The notes: generated by a model from the sequence alone, not told the origin. 64,000 nucleotides of DNA from Acutalibacteraceae bacterium (GCA_045533835.1 JAZSIM010000014.1:20874-84873); one strand, 5' to 3'. Counted from the first letter of the stretch, positions 2,025 through 43,393 are shown. Numbers and translations: made by a program.

Positions 2025-3437
2025 ATGTCCTTAAAGAAAAAAGCAGTTGTTGCAGGTGCATCCGTTGCTCTTGACGGTGTGCTGAAGTATATTGATAAAA
2101 GACCCGAGGACGGCTTTGTCAATATTCTTACATTTGCAGAAAAGCTTATCGGCAATATGTTTCCTCCCGAAAACTTTGTAAAGCTTAAAGAGGGCGCAAA
2201 GGATCCCGATAACATATACGTAAAGCTCGGAAAGAGTATTCTGAGTGACATTGACCGCGGTATCATCAAGCATACCCTTCTTTCCCTCGGTGTCGAGGCA
2301 GGCTATTTCGGCACCAAGGAGGTACGCGCAAACCGTGAAAAGTATGACTGTAACATACCCTTCCAGATTCTCATTGACCCCACAAGTGCCTGTAATCTCA
2401 AGTGCAAGGGCTGCTGGGCTGCGGAATACGGCCACAAGCAGAGCCTGACTTATGATGAAATGGATTCCGTTGTAACTCAGGCAAAGGCACTCGGAACACA
2501 TTTCTATATGTTCACGGGCGGTGAGCCTCTTATCCGTAAGGACGATATCATCCGTCTTTGCGAGGCACATGCAGACTGTGCATTTATGGCTTACACAAAC
2601 GGCACACTCATTGACGATAAGTTCTGCGAGGAGGTTAAAAGAGTAGGAAACCTTGCATTTGCTCTGAGCATTGAGGGCACCGAGGAAAGCAACGACTTCC
2701 GCCGCGGCGAGGGTGCTTACAAGAGAACCATGGAAGCTATGGCAATGCTCAAGAAGCACAAGTGCCTCTTCGGTATTTCCGTATGCTACACAAGACTTAA
2801 CGTTGACTACGTTACAAGTGACGAATTTGTTGATCTTATGATTGAAAACGGCGTAAAGTATGCCTGGTATTTCAACTATATGCCCGTAGGCCACGGTGCA
2901 GACAAGGAGCTTATCCCCACTCCCGCACAGAGAAAGTATATGTACTTCTGGCTCAGAAAAATGAGAAACTCCAAGACAGGCAAGCCTATGTTCGTTATCG
3001 ACTTCCAGGATGACGGTGAATTTGTAGGCGGCTGTATCGCAGGCGGCAGAAACTACTTCCACGTAAACTCTGCGGGTGATATCGAGCCCTGCGTATTCAT
3101 ACATTACTCAGACTCAAACATCCGTACTCATACTCTTCTTGAGGCTCTTAAGAATCCTCTCTTTATGGAATACAGAAAGGGACAGCCCTTCAACGATAAC
3201 CATCTTCGTCCCTGTCCCATGCTTGAAAATCCCGACAAACTCCGTGAGATTATAAAGAAGACGGGCGCAAAGTCCACCAATCTCATCATTGAAGAGGATG
3301 TTGAAACTCTCTGCTCACGCTGTGATGAGTTCGCATACGAATGGGCACCCGTTGCAGATGAAATCTGGAAAACAACAAAGCATCCCAAAACGCACACTCA
3401 GTATTACAGGGATAACGGCAAGGCTGTAAGACAATAA
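2025..3437 (+). CDS. Radical SAM protein
   Basis: CNLKCKGCWA is a CX3CX2C cluster motif. GGEPL and a C-terminal Cys-containing region (GDIEPCVFIHYSD, RPCPMLENP) are also present. The start MSLKKK follows GGAGAAGAG. Confidence 0.85.
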   Translation: MSLKKKAVVAGASVALDGVLKYIDKRPEDGFVNILTFAEKLIGNMFPPENFVKLKEGAKDPDNIYVKLGKSILSDIDRGIIKHTLLSLGVEAGYFGTKEVRANREKYDCNIPFQILIDPTSACNLKCKGCWAAEYGHKQSLTYDEMDSVVTQAKALGTHFYMFTGGEPLIRKDDIIRLCEAHADCAFMAYTNGTLIDDKFCEEVKRVGNLAFALSIEGTEESNDFRRGEGAYKRTMEAMAMLKKHKCLFGISVCYTRLNVDYVTSDEFVDLMIENGVKYAWYFNYMPVGHGADKELIPTPAQRKYMYFWLRKMRNSKTGKPMFVIDFQDDGEFVGGCIAGGRNYFHVNSAGDIEPCVFIHYSDSNIRTHTLLEALKNPLFMEYRKGQPFNDNHLRPCPMLENPDKLREIIKKTGAKSTNLIIEEDVETLCSRCDEFAYEWAPVADEIWKTTKHPKTHTQYYRDNGKAVRQ

Positions 3438-3451
3438 TCTGCCGATTTTTC

Positions 3452-3480
3452 TTGATTGTGACCTGAATTTGTGGTATAAT
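3452..3480 (+). promoter_or_regulatory. SigmaA-type promoter candidate for the lipoprotein gene
   Basis: TTGATT, 17 nt, then TATAAT with a TG extension (tgtggTATAAT). Confidence 0.5.
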
Positions 3481-3515
3481 AGCTGTGATAAGCAATTATC
3501 ACGGCTATTTTTTTT
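3481..3515 (+). terminator. Rho-independent terminator after the radical SAM gene
   Basis: AGCTGTGATAA-gca-TTATCACGGCT hairpin followed by ATTTTTTTTT. Confidence 0.65.
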
Positions 3516-3528
3516 CGGAGGAAATAAA

Positions 3529-4470
3529 ATGAAAATAAAAAAAGCTATTGCTCTTTTATGTGCTTTTATAATCGTGCTTCTTTCGCTGTCCTCCTGCGGA
3601 TATGAAATAAGCATCAGGAAAAAAGGTGAGGGAAACGAGCTTACAACCACAATTGTGCTTGATCCCGATACAGGGCTTCCTGTTGACGAAGGAAATTCAG
3701 TTCAGCTTCCCGAGGTGACAACGCTTCCGTCTGCCGAAGCTACCACAAGCTCAGGTGCAGGAATTCAGATAGACAACACCTACAGACCTATGGCTATGTC
3801 CTCTCAGGATGTGCTTACCTTCTATAAGAGTGCAATGAATGACGTAAAGGTGCGCGCTCCCGGCTACACCCGTACTGAATATCAGGAGATGTCCGACGTA
3901 TCCGCGGGCGACGGCAATGTTCAGCTTATAAACAGAATCCTCAACCTTGTAGGTACGGAGCTTCTCAAGGATTCGGGCGATGAGCAGAAGACCATACAGA
4001 TTATGGCACACGATGATATTGCCGTGCGTGAAACCTTCCCCCTGTATAACAAGGATGTGGGCTGTGAGCTTAATGATATGTCAATCATAAAGTCCGCAAC
4101 CTGCTATACCGACGGACTTACCTACAAAATCATCATCACCTTTGACGATCAGCTGAATCCCGACTCTCATTACAGCTCCTTCTCTCAGATTATGACTCCC
4201 ATTGACCGCAATGCTCTTTCCGATCCCATTGAGGAATATCTCGTTGTGCTCGATTACAACAACTATAAGTTTGATATCAATTACACCAACTGCGAAATCA
4301 CCTGCATAATTGACAAGGCAACCAACCGTATGACGTCACTTAAGCATAAAATGATTATGGACGTGGAAATTGTCCTTAATCTTGACCTCATCCTTTTCCA
4401 GACAAAGAATGTCAAGGCAAAGGGCAGAATCGTCAATTTCCTGGAATACTACAGCTTTGATTGGACATAA
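3529..4470 (+). CDS. Lipoprotein of unknown function
   Basis: MKIKKAIALLCAFIIVLLSLSSCGY contains an LSSC lipobox. The RBS GGAGGAAA lies upstream. Confidence 0.7.
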   Translation: MKIKKAIALLCAFIIVLLSLSSCGYEISIRKKGEGNELTTTIVLDPDTGLPVDEGNSVQLPEVTTLPSAEATTSSGAGIQIDNTYRPMAMSSQDVLTFYKSAMNDVKVRAPGYTRTEYQEMSDVSAGDGNVQLINRILNLVGTELLKDSGDEQKTIQIMAHDDIAVRETFPLYNKDVGCELNDMSIIKSATCYTDGLTYKIIITFDDQLNPDSHYSSFSQIMTPIDRNALSDPIEEYLVVLDYNNYKFDINYTNCEITCIIDKATNRMTSLKHKMIMDVEIVLNLDLILFQTKNVKAKGRIVNFLEYYSFDWT

Positions 4471-4509
4471 GTCATAATTCACGGAATTATGAAGTGATAT
4501 TTTTTGCTT
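4463..4509 (+). repeat. 47-nt direct repeat, copy 1 (first hairpin plus one GTGATAT box)
   Basis: GGACATAAGTCATAATTCACGGAATTATGAAGTGATATTTTTTGCTT is identical to 4636..4682. It includes the last codons and the TAA stop of the lipoprotein gene. Confidence 0.9.
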
Positions 4510-4536
4510 GTAGGGGAGGGCGTCCTCGACCTCCCG
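4509..4536 (+). repeat. TTGTAGGGG hairpin module, copy 1
   Basis: TTGTAGGGGAGGGCGTCCTCGACCTCCCG. The related copy at 13935..13963 reads TTGTAGGGGATGGCGTCCCCGACATCCCG. Confidence 0.8.
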
Positions 4537-4568
4537 CATTGTACAGAAAAACAAAAAATATGCAAATT

Positions 4569-4610
4569 CCCGTGGGGGACAAAAATGTACCTCCACGGGA
4601 TATTTTTTTT
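4569..4610 (+). terminator. Rho-independent terminator
   Basis: CCCGTGGGGG...CCTCCACGGG stem followed by ATATTTTTTTT. Confidence 0.6.
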
Positions 4611-4635
4611 CTTATAATTTTATTGCATTCAGACG

Positions 4636-4776
4636 GGACATAAGTCATAATTCACGGAATTATGAAGTGATATTTTTTGCTTTGCAAAAAGTGATATTGC
4701 TTCGCAGTGATATTCATTCCTTCGGAATGAGTGATATATTTTCCTTCGGAAAATGTTTCGGAAGGCTTTCGCCTTT
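4636..4776 (+). repeat. GTGATAT-box / mini-hairpin array, plus-strand copy
   Basis: GTGATAT occurs at 4667, 4691, 4707 and 4731. The boxes are separated by short stem-loops (TCATAATTC/GAATTATGA, TTTTTGC/GCAAAAA, TGC/GCA, TCATTCC/GGAATGA, ATTTTCC/GGAAAAT, GAAGGC/GCCTTT). Confidence 0.85.
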
Positions 4777-4801
4777 TCCGCTTACGCTCTATAAAACAAT
4801 C

Positions 4802-4848
4802 AGGGTATCAGCCAAAATTTTATATATGGCTGATACCCTTAGTTTTTT
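4802..4848. terminator. Hairpin terminator between convergent units
   Basis: AGGGTATCAGCC-14 nt-GGCTGATACCCT followed by TAGTTTTTT on the plus strand. It lies just 3' of the minus-strand gene ending at 4866. Confidence 0.5.
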
Positions 4849-4865
4849 CAGAAGTTTGTTGGTTT

Positions 4866-5684
4866 TTACAGGCTTCTGAGATATTTTATGCTGGATTCAA
4901 CTGCGCTGAGCTCCGTGTTGCCCTTGTCGGGAGCATCCTGCTCAACGATGAACCATTCTGCGCCCGATTCCTCACCCGCTTTTATGATTGCAGGGATGTC
5001 CTGAACACCGCTGCCTACGGGCTTGAAGCTGAAATCCTCCTCGCTTGCGGTTTCCTCGTCATCCTCAATGCCGATAAGCTCATAGAGCTTCTTAGGCTTA
5101 TCCTTGCCCTTCATAACAAAGTCCTTGAGGTGGATAACGGGAGTTCTTCCCTTGTACTTGAGAATGTAAGGTGCAGGCTCTTCACCGCCGACGTTTACCC
5201 AGCAGGTGTCAAGCTCTGTCTGAAGACAGTCAGCAGGTACGGTGCTGTACATAACGTCAAGACCGTATTCACCGTCAATTTTTACGAATTCAAAATCGTG
5301 ATTGTGGTAAAGAAGTGTAAGCCCCTCTGCAGCAGCCCTTCTTCCGATTTCCTCAATCTTCTTAAGGGTTTCGGGATAGTCGGGTGTGCCGGGACGGTAC
5401 TTTTCGTCAACGTAAGGAATAGCGATAAACTTACAGCCGATTTCCTTGTAGTCGCAAATAACCTTATCCAGATCCGCAAGCATATCTGCGAGAGGCACGT
5501 GTGCGGATACTGCCTTGAGGGAATACTTTGCGAGAAGCTCCCTGACCTCTGCGGGAGTCTTGTCAAAAAGACCTGCAAATTCAACACCCTCATAGCCCAT
5601 ATCGGCTACCTTTTTAAGAGTGCCCTCAAAGTCCTTTGCCATTTCGTTCTTTACTGAATATAACTGAAGACCTATAGGTAACAT
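4866..5684 (-). CDS. Sugar phosphate isomerase/epimerase (xylose isomerase-like TIM barrel)
   Basis: MLPIGLQLYSVKNEMAKDFEGTLKKVADMGYEGVEFAG...LLYHNHDFEF. The RBS AAGGAG lies upstream. Confidence 0.8.
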   Translation of the reverse strand: MLPIGLQLYSVKNEMAKDFEGTLKKVADMGYEGVEFAGLFDKTPAEVRELLAKYSLKAVSAHVPLADMLADLDKVICDYKEIGCKFIAIPYVDEKYRPGTPDYPETLKKIEEIGRRAAAEGLTLLYHNHDFEFVKIDGEYGLDVMYSTVPADCLQTELDTCWVNVGGEEPAPYILKYKGRTPVIHLKDFVMKGKDKPKKLYELIGIEDDEETASEEDFSFKPVGSGVQDIPAIIKAGEESGAEWFIVEQDAPDKGNTELSAVESSIKYLRSL

Positions 5685-11383: not shown

Positions 11384-13858
11384 ATGGCTGATACATCAAG
11401 AATACATCTCGTAGGCAACGCTCACCTTGACCCCATCTGGCTCTGGCGCTGGCAGGAGGGCTGCGGTGAGGTGCTTCAGACCTTCAGAAGCGCACTTGAC
11501 AGACTTAACGAATATAATGACTTTATTTTTACCTGCTCCTCTGCCGCTTACTATAAGTGGGTTGAGGAAATCGACCCTGATATGTTTGCCGAAATCACTC
11601 AGCGCGTAAAGGAGGGCAGATGGGTGCCCGTAAACGGCTGGTGGGTACAGCCCGACTGCAATATGCCCTCAGGCGAATCCTTTGCCCGTCAGGCTCTTTA
11701 TTCTCAGCTTTATTACTATGAAAAGTTCGGCAAAATCTGCACAACGGGCTATAACGTAGACTCCTTCGGTCATAATGCCATGATGCCGCAGCTGCTTTTC
11801 AAGGGCGGTATGACTAACTATGTTTTCCAGCGTCCCACCCCCAACGAGAATCCCGATATCCCCGTAACCTTCATCTGGGAGAGCATGGACGGCTCAAGAG
11901 TGCTTACCTACCGTCTTCCCCACGGCTATGCCGACCACGGCAAAAATGCAATTGATTCGGGACTTGAATGTGCCGAAAAGTTTATTAATGAAACAGGCCA
12001 CGGTATGATGCTGTTCTACGGCGTCGGTAACCACGGCGGCGGCCCCACAAGAGGAGATATTGAATACCTCAAGGAAAATATGACCCGTGAGGGCTGGCAT
12101 AAGCTGCAGTTCTCATCCCCCGATATGTATTTTAAGGCACTGACATTACAGTTCCCCGACCTTCCCTTATGGAAGGATGAATTACAGCACCACGCAAGCG
12201 GCTGCTACAGCGCAACAAGCCTTGTAAAGAAGCTCAACCGTCAGGCTGAAAACTCCCTTTTTGCATCCGAGGCCTTCTCAACCGTTGCAAATAAGGAATA
12301 TAAGATGGAAGCTAAGACCGAGGACTTTAAGACCGCCTGGCGTGAGGTATGCTTCAATCAGTTCCACGATATTCTCTGCGGCTGCTCCATAATGGAAGCT
12401 TATGATGACGTAAGAGATTCCATGGGACACGCTATGAATATTTCCTCCAAGATTTACAACGAAGCAGTTCTCAGAATCGCAAGGAAGATTGACACCTGGG
12501 TTGACGGTGTTTCGGATCCCGTATGTACTGAGGTCAGAAATCAGTCCTGCGGTAATTTCCCCCGTCCCGTTGTTGTATTCAATCCCCATTCCTTTGATAT
12601 TGAGGTTTCCGTGCGCGCTTACAACGCTTCAAGCAAGGTAACGGACTGCGAGGGCAAGGATGTTCCCTTCCAGAACGTGCGCTCCTCCCGTTCAAACGAC
12701 TCTCATATGGATACCTGCTTTATAGCTAAGGTGCCTGCTCTCGGATATAGCACATACTGGCTTACCTGGTGGAGAGAAAATGACGAGGTAAAGAGCGTTT
12801 CCTCAGACGTAATGGCTGACGGTCTTACAATTGAAAATAAGTATATAAAGGCAACCTTCTCCGAAAAGACGGGCGCAATCGTAAGTCTTATCAATAAGGA
12901 AACAGGCTTCGATTATGCAAGTGCCGAAAAGCCCGTTGCTGTTCCCACGGTAATTGACGACAGTGACACGGACACCTGGGCACATAACGTATTTACCTTC
13001 CACAATGTAAAGGGCACAATGGAGCTTGAAAGTATCGAGCTTGTTGAGGCAGGCCCTGCCCGTGCGGTAGTAAGAGTTAAGAGTAAATTCGGTGAATCCC
13101 ACCTTTCTCAGGACTTCATCCTTGCTGCCGGTGCAAAGGTTCTTCGCGTAAAGTGCAAGGCACTGTGGCAGGAAAGGTTCACTATGCTTAAAATGTCCTT
13201 CCCCGTTACAGGCGACAATGCAGAGAACACCTACGAGATTCCTGCAGGCTTCATAAAGCGTCCCGTAAACGGTGAGGAGGAGCCGGCACAGCGTTGGGGT
13301 GCAATCTCCTTCGATAACGGTGAAAGAAGAACACTTGCAGTTCTTAATGACAGCAAGTATTCCTACGATTGCAAGGGAAATGACCTTCGCATTACTCTTA
13401 TGCGAAATGTTATTTTTGCAGACCACTATTCACACCGTCCTGCAGCAGACTTCAACTTCACGGATGAAGGCAAGCAGACCTTCGAGTACGGCATTTTCCT
13501 TTGTGACGGAGCTCCCGAATTAAACGGCATCACTAAGGAAGCCGCTCTCTTCAATGTCCGTCCCGTGCTCGTTCCCGAAAGCTATCACAAGGGCTCAGAG
13601 CCTCAGCAGAAGAGATTTATTTACTGCGATAAAGACAATGTCATTATGACCGCGTTCAAATTAGCAGAGGACGGCTCAGGCGATACAGTTATCCGTTTTG
13701 CAGAAACCTCAGGTAAGGAAACAAGAGCTGCTATCGTGTGCGATATGCTCGACTGCGGCTTCAGGGCTGATTTCCTTCCCTGCGAAATCAAGACCTTCCG
13801 CGTAGACGCCGACGGCAGAGTAACCGAAGAAAACTTCCTTGAAGGCAATATAAAGTAA
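11384..13858 (+). CDS. Alpha-mannosidase, glycoside hydrolase family 38
   Basis: IHLVGNAHLDPIWLWRWQEG and DSFGHN are typical GH38 N-terminal motifs. Length is 824 aa. Confidence 0.9.
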   Translation: MADTSRIHLVGNAHLDPIWLWRWQEGCGEVLQTFRSALDRLNEYNDFIFTCSSAAYYKWVEEIDPDMFAEITQRVKEGRWVPVNGWWVQPDCNMPSGESFARQALYSQLYYYEKFGKICTTGYNVDSFGHNAMMPQLLFKGGMTNYVFQRPTPNENPDIPVTFIWESMDGSRVLTYRLPHGYADHGKNAIDSGLECAEKFINETGHGMMLFYGVGNHGGGPTRGDIEYLKENMTREGWHKLQFSSPDMYFKALTLQFPDLPLWKDELQHHASGCYSATSLVKKLNRQAENSLFASEAFSTVANKEYKMEAKTEDFKTAWREVCFNQFHDILCGCSIMEAYDDVRDSMGHAMNISSKIYNEAVLRIARKIDTWVDGVSDPVCTEVRNQSCGNFPRPVVVFNPHSFDIEVSVRAYNASSKVTDCEGKDVPFQNVRSSRSNDSHMDTCFIAKVPALGYSTYWLTWWRENDEVKSVSSDVMADGLTIENKYIKATFSEKTGAIVSLINKETGFDYASAEKPVAVPTVIDDSDTDTWAHNVFTFHNVKGTMELESIELVEAGPARAVVRVKSKFGESHLSQDFILAAGAKVLRVKCKALWQERFTMLKMSFPVTGDNAENTYEIPAGFIKRPVNGEEEPAQRWGAISFDNGERRTLAVLNDSKYSYDCKGNDLRITLMRNVIFADHYSHRPAADFNFTDEGKQTFEYGIFLCDGAPELNGITKEAALFNVRPVLVPESYHKGSEPQQKRFIYCDKDNVIMTAFKLAEDGSGDTVIRFAETSGKETRAAIVCDMLDCGFRADFLPCEIKTFRVDADGRVTEENFLEGNIK

Positions 13859-13934: not shown

Positions 13935-13963
13935 TTGTAGGGGATGGCGTCCCCGACATCCCG
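13935..13963 (+). repeat. TTGTAGGGG hairpin module, copy 2
   Basis: TTGTAGGGGATGGCGTCCCCGACATCCCG. The stem is GGGATG/CATCCC here versus GGGAGG/CCTCCC in copy 1. Confidence 0.8.
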
Positions 13964-13973
13964 AAAAACAAAA

Positions 13974-14009
13974 GTGCAGAAGTTTTTACGCTTCTGCACT
14001 TAATTTTTT
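13974..14009 (+). terminator. Rho-independent terminator after GH38
   Basis: GTGCAGAAG-8 nt-CTTCTGCAC followed by TTAATTTTTT. Confidence 0.65.
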
Positions 14010-14019
14010 GTATAATGCC

Positions 14020-14158
14020 GACCGCAAGGTCCCGAAACATTTGCCGAAAGGCAAATATATCACTCATTCCGCAGGAATGAATATCACTTCCCGAAGGGAA
14101 ATATCACTTTTTGCGAAGCAAAAAATATCACTTCATAATTTAGCTCGCTAAATTATGA
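14020..14158 (-). repeat. GTGATAT-box / mini-hairpin array, minus-strand copy
   Basis: ATATCAC occurs on the plus strand at 14057, 14081, 14101 and 14125. The hairpins sit at the same relative positions as in 4636..4776. The array starts directly after the TAA of the aminopeptidase gene. Confidence 0.85.
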
Positions 14159-35730: not shown

Positions 35731-35823
35731 GGCGGAGCAGGAGAGACTCGAACTCTCGCGCCGGGGTTTAGCCGACCTACGCCCTTAGCAGGGGCGCCTC
35801 GTCACCAACTTGAGTACTGCTCC
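35730..35823 (-). tRNA. tRNA-Ser (anticodon GCU)
   Basis: The reverse complement is GGAGCAGTACTCAAGTTGGTGACGAGGCGCCCCTGCTAAGGGCG...GTTCGAGTCTCTCCTGCTCCGCCA. It shows a 7-bp acceptor stem, a CUGCUAA anticodon loop, a long variable arm, GTTCGAGTC and an encoded CCA. Confidence 0.85.
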
Positions 35824-35853
35824 GTATGGTAAACGTGATTATATTAAAAAAAA

Positions 35854-35944
35854 TGGCGGAGAGAGTGGGATTCGAACCCACGGTACCCGTAAGAGTACGA
35901 CGGTTTTCAAGACCGTTCCGTTATGACCGCTTCGGTATCTCTCC
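35854..35944 (-). tRNA. tRNA-Ser (anticodon UGA)
   Basis: The reverse complement is GGAGAGATACCGAAGCGGTCATAACGGAACGGTCTTGAAAACCGTCG...GGTTCGAATCCCACTCTCTCCGCCA. It shows a CUUGAAA anticodon loop, a long variable arm and an encoded CCA. Confidence 0.85.
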
Positions 35945-41807: not shown

Positions 41808-42470
41808 ATGGAAAATAAAAATAAACAGCAAACCGGATATTATAAGTGTAAGATTAAAGATACACACTACAATTCAGATGGTAGTATACGTTATTGTCGT
41901 GAAACAGAATATGATAATAACGGAAACGAGATAAAAATTACTTCATTTAACCCCGATGGCAGTATACATTGGTGGAGTGAAAAGCAATATGACGAAAACA
42001 ACAGGGAAATAAAGTTAATTGATTACAATCATGATGGCATTATAGATGGATGGTATGAAACAGAATATGATAATAACGGAAATGAGATAAACTTTACTTC
42101 ATTTAACTCCGATGGTAGAAATAATTGGTGGTATGAAAAAGAATATGATGAAAACAACAGGCAGATAAAGCTTATTTATTACAATCCTGATGGCAGCATA
42201 CGTTGGTGGCGTGAAACAGAATATTATAATAACGGGAATGAGATAAAATGTACTACATTTAACTCCGACGGCAGTATAGATTGGTGGAGCGAAAATGAAT
42301 ATGACGCAAATTACAGGTTGATAAACGAGTCTGATGGCGACATAAACGAGTGGAATGAATATGAATATGATGATAATGGCAATAAGGTAAGGTGTAATTG
42401 TTTCGACTCCGCAGGAAAAATAAAAAGAGTTATTGAATATGAATACCGAAAATCTGAAATAACCGGATAA
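41808..42470 (+). CDS. Repeat protein 1 (220 aa; about eight 26-aa YD-like repeats)
   Basis: MENKNKQQTGYYKCKIKDTHYNSDGSIRYCRETEYDNNGNEIKITSFNPDGSIHWWSEKQYDENNREIK... The RBS AAAGGAG is present. It has no signal peptide. Confidence 0.75.
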   Translation: MENKNKQQTGYYKCKIKDTHYNSDGSIRYCRETEYDNNGNEIKITSFNPDGSIHWWSEKQYDENNREIKLIDYNHDGIIDGWYETEYDNNGNEINFTSFNSDGRNNWWYEKEYDENNRQIKLIYYNPDGSIRWWRETEYYNNGNEIKCTTFNSDGSIDWWSENEYDANYRLINESDGDINEWNEYEYDDNGNKVRCNCFDSAGKIKRVIEYEYRKSEITG

Positions 42471-42481
42471 TTCACCGTTAC

Positions 42482-42514
42482 GGGATGTGTATGCGAATAC
42501 ATGTCCCGTTTTTT
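42482..42514 (+). terminator. Terminator hairpin, copy 2 of 3
   Basis: Identical to 41727..41759. Confidence 0.6.
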
Positions 42515-42562
42515 GTACATGTCCTGCGTTATATTTGTGTCAGAAAACAAAGGAGGATAACA

Positions 42563-43393
42563 ATGGAAAATAAAAGCAAACAGCAAACCGGATATTATAA
42601 GTGTAATATAAAAGATACACACTACAATTCAGATGGTAGTATACGTTATTATCGTGAAACAGAATATGATAATAACGGAAACGAGATAAAATCTACTTCA
42701 TTTAAACCCGATGGCAGTATAGATTGGTGGACTGAAAAAGAATATGACGAAAACAACAGGCAGATAAAGCATATTGCTTACAATTCTGATGGCAGCGTAA
42801 TCAACTGGTATGAAGAAGAATATAACAACAACGGAAACGAGATAAAACAAACTGAATATGATTCTGACGGCAGTATATATTGGTGGAGTGAAACAGAATA
42901 TGATAATAACGGAAATGTGATAAAACAAACCGGCTATGATTCTGACGGCAGTATAAATTGGTGGAGTAAAAAAGAATATGATAATAACGGAAATGAGATA
43001 AAGCTGACTGAATATAATTCTGACGGCAGTATAGATTGGTGGAGTGAAAAGGAATATGACGAAAACAACAGACAGATAAAGCATATTTATTACAAGTCTG
43101 ATGGCAGCATAAACCGTTGGCATGAAAAAGAATATAACAAAAACGGTAATAAGATGAAATTTTCTTCATTTAGCCCAGACGGCAGTATAGATTGGTGGAG
43201 CGAAAATGAATATGACGCAAATAACAGGTTGATAAAGCATACTGTTTACGAGTCTGATGGCGACATAAACGAGTGGAATGAATATGAATATGACGATAAT
43301 GGCAATAAGGTAAGGTGTAGTTGTTTCGACTCCGCAGGAAAAATAAAAAGAGTTATTGAATATGAATACCGAAAACCTGAAATAACCGGATAA
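42563..43393 (+). CDS. Repeat protein 2 (276 aa; about ten or eleven 26-aa YD-like repeats), paralog of 41808..42470
   Basis: MENKSKQQTGYYKCNIKDTHYNSDGSIRYYRETEYDNNGNEIK...; the 5' and 3' ends are nearly identical in DNA to gene 1. Confidence 0.75.
   Translation: MENKSKQQTGYYKCNIKDTHYNSDGSIRYYRETEYDNNGNEIKSTSFKPDGSIDWWTEKEYDENNRQIKHIAYNSDGSVINWYEEEYNNNGNEIKQTEYDSDGSIYWWSETEYDNNGNVIKQTGYDSDGSINWWSKKEYDNNGNEIKLTEYNSDGSIDWWSEKEYDENNRQIKHIYYKSDGSINRWHEKEYNKNGNKMKFSSFSPDGSIDWWSENEYDANNRLIKHTVYESDGDINEWNEYEYDDNGNKVRCSCFDSAGKIKRVIEYEYRKPEITG

Follow-up and report, generated by a model that had tools for sequence, protein, structure and literature searches.

The stretch of DNA analysed here (64,000 nucleotides of an Acutalibacteraceae bacterium, hereafter the window) contains an intergenic array in which a fixed heptamer alternates with small hairpins, and it raises the question of which family, if any, the array belongs to and whether it works as RNA or as DNA. 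An earlier note, made from the sequence alone, had recognized no described family in it. We find that the array is very probably one copy of Gut-1 (Rfam RF01706), a modular repeat in the intergenic DNA of gut Oscillospirales and other Clostridia, and that the best explanation overall, to which we give a probability of about one half, is a Gut-1 copy transcribed as a module of a 3' untranslated region (3' UTR).

Anatomy of the array

The array, hereafter abbreviated as copy 1, spans positions 4645-4775 of the plus strand and consists of four exact (A)GTGATAT boxes alternating with six short perfect hairpins; both this architecture and the box spacings of 24, 16 and 24 nt agree with the earlier description. 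It opens with a 9-bp 5' hairpin (TCATAATTC-acg-GAATTATGA, 4645-4665) that is seen in the sequence, in the inverted-repeat search and in the predicted fold. There follow, on the same strand, an A with the first box (4666-4673, the box itself at 4667-4673), a 7-bp hairpin TTTTTGC-ttt-GCAAAAA (4674-4690), the second box (4691-4697), a 3-bp hairpin TGC-ttc-GCA (4698-4706), the third box (4707-4713), a 7-bp hairpin (4714-4730), the fourth box (4731-4737), one more 7-bp hairpin (4738-4754), a degenerate terminal box GTTTCGG (4755-4761) and a last hairpin of 5 bp (4762-4775). The region is non-coding, as had been proposed. Two details of the loops need correction: that of TTTTTGC-ttt-GCAAAAA had been read as tt, and the loops likened to UUCG are 3-nt UUC loops closed by a C-G pair, not UUCG tetraloops.

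In the whole window the box motif AGTGATAT is present 11 times, a count attained in none of 100 shuffles (expectation 1.47 ± 1.11), and pairs of boxes lying 8-24 nt apart occur six times, against 0.06 expected. For the box-sense RNA of copy 1 the predicted fold has -45.9 kcal/mol (z = -4.5), and here the terminal UAU of one box is joined to the initial GUG of the following one by two wobble pairs and one A-U pair. Because most of each box is paired in the prediction, the heptamer need not be single-stranded, contrary to what had been supposed.

Downstream of the last hairpin lies a tail, (T)TTCCGCTTACGCTCTAT (4776-4792, plus strand), which is also present in copies from two related loci, L241 and L242 (compared loci are designated in this way throughout), and absent from the second complete copy of the window (copy 2). 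Its form TTCCGCT...GCTCTAT(A/T)n is conserved 3' of the last hairpin in one subfamily, comprising the window copy at 4776-4792 and those of L241 and L242. In place of this tail, copy 2 and the copies of L194 and L243 have GGCATTATAC, AGCATTGTAT or GGCATTTTAA, all giving TAnAAT when the complementary strand is read.

Family identity

Copy 2, the second locus alluded to in the earlier note, occupies 14020-14158 on the minus strand and includes a 5' hairpin, four boxes (at 14131, 14107, 14087 and 14063, read downwards), the intervening hairpins, GTTTCGG and the last hairpin. The Rfam model of Gut-1 matches it at 14052-14133 with 56.5 bits, above the gathering cut-off of 50. Copy 1 is matched at 4705-4768 (plus strand) with 33.5 bits, under the cut-off (E = 8e-5 locally and 0.01 window-wide), and its upstream half (4640-4702) gives a further 17.2 bits. 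This lower score is due to the very short second hairpin, TGC-ttc-GCA. Since copy 1 is 83% identical to the threshold-passing copy 2 (141 aligned columns, including the flanking hairpins outside the model), it can be assigned to the same family. It has the Gut-1 architecture, namely four GUGAAAU-like boxes (at 4667, 4691, 4707 and 4731) with three hairpins between them, and its core array (4667-4737, plus strand) is the portion covered by the Rfam model. A match to a catalogued RNA family had been named in the earlier note among the results that would refute its proposal, and the match to Gut-1 refutes the claim of novelty. The window copies are thus further members of a known family, with little that is new at the level of family identity.

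Gut-1 was described on the basis of 43 examples, all from human-gut metagenomes, as a candidate small RNA without known host organism, and neither a function nor expression data were given (Weinberg et al. 2010, Genome Biol 11:R31; PMC2864571). The published element resembles the window copies in having four GUGAAAU/GUGAUAU boxes with three covarying hairpins between them, as well as in its provenance from gut bacteria, and the published alignment contains the same arrays, also in a convergent form with ATATCAC boxes, after tRNA genes or terminators (PMC2864571). We found no paper on Gut-1 in the literature after that study. The window element is longer than the 77-position model, to which it adds a 5' hairpin, a fourth hairpin, the terminal GTTTCGG and a last hairpin; the order of elements in this 3' part (4738-4775 in copy 1) is repeated in copy 2, L194, L241 and L242. 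Whereas no host was known in 2010, Gut-1 is now found in MAGs of Acutalibacteraceae, Oscillospiraceae and other Clostridia. The family can be defined by its unit: a box of invariant sequence, (A)GTGATAT(T) or GTGAAAT, in alternation with hairpins that are short, GC-clamped and near-perfect.

Dispersal and forms of Gut-1 arrays

A scan for three AGTGA[AT]AT boxes lying 8-24 nt apart, in which every species was represented by one genome, listed at least 120 matches. With simple tandem repeats from unrelated phyla left out, there are at least 112 hairpin-spaced arrays in at least 94 loci (at least 114 arrays when both window copies are included). The dispersal agrees with the options previously offered, a REP/BOX-like dispersed element or a structured 3' UTR or small RNA. 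Nearly all arrays among the matches listed come from gut MAGs (human, goat, sheep, deer, yak, buffalo and cattle), which are labelled Acutalibacteraceae, Oscillospiraceae, Ruminococcus, Faecousia, Christensenellaceae, Eubacteriales or Clostridia, while Lachnospiraceae (Roseburia and Butyrivibrio crossotus) account for a few. A single contig has been assigned to Akkermansia by binning. This contig, L124 (Akkermansia sp., goat caecum), carries three above-threshold Gut-1 matches with GTGAAAT boxes at 2312-3306, and either is mis-binned or indicates that the family is present outside Firmicutes. Among the same matches, the array most similar to the window copy is from an Acutalibacteraceae MAG. 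Copy 1 is 77-78% identical to the array of L194, and none of the compared loci is a close relative of the window. With the Rfam model, 17 Gut-1 matches above threshold were obtained in 12 of the 18 related loci sampled.

The family is present in multiple copies. At least 10 MAGs contributed two separate array-bearing contigs each, several 8-kb loci carry two or three elements, and three contigs of a single metagenome hold about seven arrays or array fragments. Extrapolation from this local density suggests that a genome probably contains tens of copies. The 5' hairpin is common to the copies of one genome or metagenome.

Two forms can be distinguished. Solo arrays, which include both window copies and those of L130, L140, L202, L212, L218, L232 and L238, are arranged as stop codon or terminator, 5' hairpin, boxes with hairpins, terminal GT[GT]nnGG, last hairpin and terminator. 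Composite arrays, which are common, consist of a four-box array on one strand that abuts a three-box array on the other; along one strand they read as boxes, TATATTCGCC...AACTG and ATATCAC boxes ending in GGCGAATATA, with terminator-like hairpins on both flanks. In several cases the composite is located some 39 nt past a tRNA gene of the same orientation, and another composite is close to an SRP RNA gene (L215). Often it is the three-box side that starts about 39 nt past the co-oriented tRNA gene and its terminator (L131, L134, L164 and L197), and placement by tRNA genes is seen in the 2010 alignment too (PMC2864571). Nested and tandem partial arrays are found on the reverse strand of L241 (approximately 130-300 and 2130-2331), where a 92-nt unit, which has the 5' hairpin and three boxes and in which the third hairpin is broken, is repeated at least three times, and another array is cut within its third box and followed by a fresh 5' hairpin and array.

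BLAST searches of plasmid and phage collections gave no match to the element. A loose three-box scan of viral contigs returned mostly coding sequences or simple tandem repeats, and only L046, and perhaps L073, resembled true arrays. L046 (IMG/VR 3300018495_002688, a 4.2-kb contig classed as viral) carries, around position 2672 of its reverse strand, a true A-type Gut-1 array built of the hairpin modules that are also present in L132 and L235.

Surroundings of the window copies

The gene upstream of copy 1 and co-oriented with it is a lipoprotein-like ORF (3469-4470, plus strand), for which no Pfam family was matched. Its stop codon is the TAA at 4468-4470; the TAA at 4641-4643, previously taken for this stop, lies within the second arm of a perfect 47-nt direct duplication (4463-4509 and 4636-4682, plus strand, 100% identity). 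Each arm runs from the last codons of the gene, with the stop codon, through the 5' hairpin and the first box into the first inter-box hairpin, of which it includes one half. What the first arm contains is therefore a truncated element. This 38-nt fragment (4472-4509, plus strand) contains the 5' hairpin (4472-4492), an A with the box (4493-4500) and half of hairpin 1, breaking exactly within the loop of the latter.

Between the arms lies a 126-nt insert (4510-4635, plus strand) that begins with GTAGGGG and contains a GTAG-tagged REP-like hairpin (4510-4535, plus strand), as well as a terminator-like hairpin at 4568-4598 (plus strand) followed by a T-run to 4610, which is evident in the sequence and corresponds to the terminator-like part of a His_leader alignment. 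Together, duplication and insert look like a recent insertion or template-switch event. The junction specific to the window, AATTATGAAGTGATATTTTTTGCTT, had no match in an exact metagenome scan, so no strain lacking the 173-nt duplication and insert was found. Beyond copy 1, the inverted-repeat search detects a long hairpin followed by a T-run (4793-4855, plus strand; arms 4793-4814 and 4827-4848), which is likely to be the terminator of the plus-strand transcript, and then comes a convergent gene for a xylose-isomerase-like TIM barrel protein (PF01261; 4866-5684, minus strand).

The first base of copy 2 is directly 3' of the TAA of a co-oriented gene for an M29 aminopeptidase (PF02073; 14159-15385, minus strand). 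Downstream of copy 2 are a bidirectional terminator-like hairpin (13972-14001), an adjoining GTAG-tagged REP-like hairpin (GTAGGGGATGGCGTCCCCGACATCCC; 13937-13962, plus strand) and a convergent GH38 mannosidase gene (11384-13858, plus strand).

The GTAGGGG sequence followed by a 5-8-bp hairpin constitutes a separate REP-like family in these Clostridia. Besides the two window copies (4510-4535 and 13937-13962, both plus strand), it is found at L160 988/1013, L171 7029/7054, L205 1005/1030 and L241 1776/1908, often as REPIN- or MITE-like inverted doublets 25 nt apart (about 130 nt in L241). The related loci, 693 kb in total, contain 27 copies, and for six of these a Gut-1 array is no more than 400 nt away.

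Elsewhere in the window, 41868-43313 contains long tandem repeats with periods of 78, 156, 234 and 312 nt (65-80% matches) and is probably a repeat-domain coding region. Two tRNA genes lie at 35733-35944 (minus strand), in a region 82% identical to L166, from an Acutalibacteraceae MAG. SpoIIP and Gpr are also encoded in the window, which marks its host as a spore-former among the Clostridia, probably of Oscillospirales in view of the Acutalibacteraceae origin of the most similar array.

Conservation of the hairpins

The structure was evaluated on an alignment of 51 four-box arrays, in which the three inter-box hairpins were examined. In these arrays 92.4% of the cells are paired, compared with 63.3 ± 1.0% in shuffles; sliding the partner lowers the value to 38-50%. 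Changes on both sides are found for 19 of the 20 pairs, and compensatory cells number 252 versus 65 ± 7 in shuffles, with 10 one-sided changes. The hairpins recognized in the earlier note are thus real and conserved by compensatory change.

Two features, the composition of the stems and the strong asymmetry of the loops, are atypical of an RNA under selection on a single strand. In 202 distinct hairpins, 1163 stem pairs are Watson-Crick (96%), the remainder being 8 G·U, 11 A·C and 25 other mismatches; wobble pairs are tolerated no better than other mismatches, and the count of G·U versus A·C (8 against 11) did not discriminate the functional strand. The loops on the box strand include TTC (26), TTT (17), TGC (14), TTGC (12), TAC (12) and TTAC (8), versus GAA (2). 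On the opposite strand these loops are therefore GAA/GCA/GTA and GCAA/GTAA, which are stable GNA or GNRA types, and loops of the GAAA type occur on that strand as well. In the window copies the strand opposite to the boxes reads GCGAAGC, CCGAAGG and CCGAAAGG, separated by ATATCAC. GCGAAGC and CCGAAGG are exceptionally stable single-stranded DNA mini-hairpins, present in phage G4 origins, ssiA priming signals and N4 promoters (PMC13037366). In predicted folds, the box-sense RNA exceeds the antisense RNA in stability by about 10 kcal/mol, as each of its stems is extended by the UAU/GUG wobble pairs; the two DNA strands are equal.

Comparison with other repeat and RNA systems

Parallels exist with dispersed bacterial repeats. 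Like the REP/BIME elements of enterobacteria and GTAG-tagged palindromes, Gut-1 has many intergenic copies, often located after stop codons or between convergent genes, and like them it combines a short conserved tag with an adjacent hairpin and occurs in both orientations. REP elements of Escherichia coli stabilise the upstream mRNA, and a comparable role has been proposed for pneumococcal BOX. Membership of the REP/BIME class was nevertheless rejected, for the tag is AGTGATAT rather than GTAG or, more generally, GT(A/G)G, and the units are direct repeats with differing hairpin sequences instead of one sequence common to all; true GTAG-tagged hairpins are present separately in the same genomes. 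The BOX elements of Streptococcus pneumoniae are modular dispersed repeats of Firmicutes, structured and intergenic, with a variable number of internal modules. They share with Gut-1 this modular, dispersed, strongly structured and intergenic character, but not sequence similarity; their modules are about 45-60 nt long, compared with 16-25 nt, and have no invariant heptamer between hairpins. No gene of the RAYT (Y1 transposase) type was found recurring near the arrays. Gut-1 would thus work like REP/BIME or BOX without being one of them, given its different tag, its different units and the lack of a recurring RAYT-type gene near the arrays.

Sponge RNAs such as CsrB and RsmZ also repeat a short motif on a hairpin scaffold, but they present GGA in hairpin loops; in Gut-1 the loops are UUC, UUU or UGC and the conserved box, which has no GGA, lies between the hairpins, so this type was rejected. 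The multivalent platform for a binding protein that the earlier note had proposed would be a mechanism of a similar kind; it is conceivable, but neither a partner protein nor a recurring neighbour gene was found, and in the RNA the heptamer may be largely paired. So was a CRISPR array, as the repeat is only 7-9 nt long, compared with the minimum of approximately 23 nt for CRISPR, and the 'spacers' are palindromes of 9-19 nt. A type III antitoxin of the ToxI kind needs tandem repeats of about 36 nt immediately 5' of a gene for a toxin endoribonuclease, and was rejected on finding a terminator and a convergent gene downstream with no recurring neighbour; triplet arrays of the TRAP or HutP type were rejected on anatomy. 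The G4 origin, ssiA and N4 promoter sites have the same stable mini-hairpins that Gut-1 carries on the strand complementary to the boxes (GCGAAGC, CCGAAGG and CCGAAAGG), but are single sites of replicons or phages whose strand is fixed with respect to replication, whereas Gut-1 is chromosomal, many-copy and present in both orientations. The sequence AGTG↓ATATT may bear a resemblance to the nick sites of HUH nucleases (phiX174 CAACTTG↓ATATT, pC194 CTTG↓ATA and ISDra2 TTGAT↓), and GUGAU may be complementary to the 3' region of 16S rRNA.

Gut-1 as a proposed transcribed 3' UTR module

Both window copies start 0-1 nt past a TAA context (the duplicated one in the case of copy 1), and both face a convergent gene, encoding the TIM-barrel protein (4866-5684, minus strand) or the GH38 mannosidase (11384-13858, plus strand), with a terminator in between. 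Solo arrays in L212, L218, L232, L177, L184 and L157 likewise begin 0-40 nt past a stop codon. According to crude ORF calls, 27 solo arrays have the same orientation as the nearest gene upstream and 9 the opposite one, whereas composites have no bias. The higher predicted stability of the box-sense RNA relative to the antisense RNA, with equal DNA strands, is also in favour of transcription as 3' UTR. The start at the stop-codon context of a co-oriented gene and the end before a terminator thus point to a REP/BOX-like repeat that is transcribed as 3' UTR, which is the reading that we favour.

How such a module might act can be outlined tentatively, from position and predicted structure. Each window copy would be transcribed as the 3' untranslated end of the mRNA of its upstream co-oriented gene, up to the intrinsic terminator, and the transcript would fold into a comb of six short hairpins. 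The comb may then serve as a stable 3'-end module, a barrier both to 3' exonucleases and to read-through between convergent genes, in which a putative family-specific factor would recognize the invariant box. Copies would spread or be homogenised within the genome by duplication or recombination at the repeats, as suggested by two observations, the duplication of 47 nt near copy 1 and the partial arrays, nested or in tandem, of L241.

Several observations do not sit easily with the 3' UTR reading. Composites and some solo copies (L194 and L242) lie after terminators or tRNA genes, and thus would not be co-transcribed with the upstream gene unless there is read-through; even in the window, the terminator-like hairpin at 4568-4598 with its T-run stands between the real stop codon and the complete array of copy 1. 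The 96% Watson-Crick stems, with 10 one-sided versus 252 double changes, and the stable GNA/GNRA loops on the strand complementary to the boxes, rather than box-sense, also speak against it. As regards family identity, copy 1 by itself is below the Rfam gathering score.

Alternative explanations

The properties of the stems and loops favour the main rival, possible if on balance unlikely, according to which the array is a palindromic DNA-level repeat similar to REP/BIME: its hairpins would act as single-stranded DNA or cruciforms, being propagated, bound or cut by a dedicated putative protein, and any transcript would be incidental. The palindromes are near-perfect and show no wobble excess (8 G·U and 11 A·C among 1163 Watson-Crick pairs), double changes exceed one-sided ones (252 to 10), and the predominant 3-nt loops become GAA/GCA/GTA, or else GCAA/GTAA/GAAA, on the complementary strand, where hairpins such as GCGAAGC and CCGAAGG are known to be exceptionally stable as single-stranded DNA (PMC13037366). 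The equal folding of the two DNA strands is in line with this reading, as are the frequent convergent pairs between terminators, where little transcription is expected, the partial arrays of L241 together with the 47-nt duplication, and the presence of GTAG-tagged REP-like hairpins in the same intergenic regions. However, the hairpin sequences differ between units, which would not fit a single hairpin-specific enzyme of the RAYT type, and no transposase or other gene recurs near the arrays: when the ORFs of 97 loci were clustered all-against-all, no family was found in more than 8 loci, and therefore no cis-encoded partner or transposase emerges. The top neighbour families, which include common paralogues of sugar metabolism, comprise GFO/IDH/MocA oxidoreductases, xylose-isomerase-like TIM barrels and AraC regulators, besides PALP enzymes and ABC transporters. 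Moreover, the plasmid and phage collections held no match, the opposite orientation of the window copies, only 9.4 kb apart, speaks against a function that depends on replication direction, and the orientation bias of solo arrays (27 to 9) points to transcription.

Extended to the whole family, it is doubtful, though conceivable, that Gut-1 constitutes a class of self-propagating or protein-managed DNA elements of gut Clostridia, or a structure of both strands, and not a conventional small RNA. The mini-hairpins of GCGAAGC/CCGAAGG type may then act as single-stranded DNA, and AGTGATAT may be the recognition or cleavage site of a putative protein.

We regard as improbable that the array is, in agreement with the label given to Gut-1 in Rfam, a free-standing small RNA gene with its own promoter and terminator, acting in trans, for instance as a multivalent protein sponge, and perhaps transcribed from the strand opposite to the Rfam model. 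Composites are insulated by terminators on both sides and would therefore need a promoter of their own if expressed; some follow tRNA or SRP RNA genes. Among the matches listed, 27 of 111 arrays spell TTGnnn, 16-18 nt and TATTnT preceded by TGn, a near-consensus extended -10 promoter that spans the last two boxes and the hairpin between them. (In A-type arrays such as those of L134, L164, L199, L210 and L215, the last T of box 3 and the start of the hairpin form TTGAAA or TTGAAG, and 16-17 nt further on box 4 and the next bases form TGaTATTAT.) The antisense TAnAAT hexamers just outside the 3' end of copy 2 and of the L194 and L243 copies, and the GNRA-type loops of the antisense strand, would also suit a small RNA. 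Yet such promoter-like motifs are absent from most arrays, and the window copies have only a weak match at 9 of 12 positions (TTCATT-16-TATATT) and abut stop codons, which leaves no room for a promoter; nor was any candidate partner protein found beside the arrays.

Finally, a product of chance or a simple tandem repeat with unselected structure deserves practically no credence. In its favour, a 24-nt period (1.9 copies) is detected by Tandem Repeats Finder at 4706-4751, but this reading is refuted by box and box-gap-box counts far exceeding those of shuffles and by covariation of 19 out of 20 pairs in 51 arrays of many species, and the sister copy scores above the Rfam threshold.

Implications for the Gut-1 family

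For the window itself, these results amount mainly to annotation: two Gut-1 elements and one fragment are located in the 3' regions of genes for a lipoprotein-like protein and an M29 peptidase. For the family, an orphan motif since 2010 is now placed in named MAG lineages, and emerges as a modular, many-copy element that often forms convergent pairs and extends past the Rfam model. Its scarce wobble pairs and the stable loops of the opposite strand fit badly with a simple small RNA acting from one strand. The label 'function unknown' is thereby narrowed to a few alternatives, namely a stabiliser in the 3' UTR, a DNA-level repeat or an autonomous small RNA.
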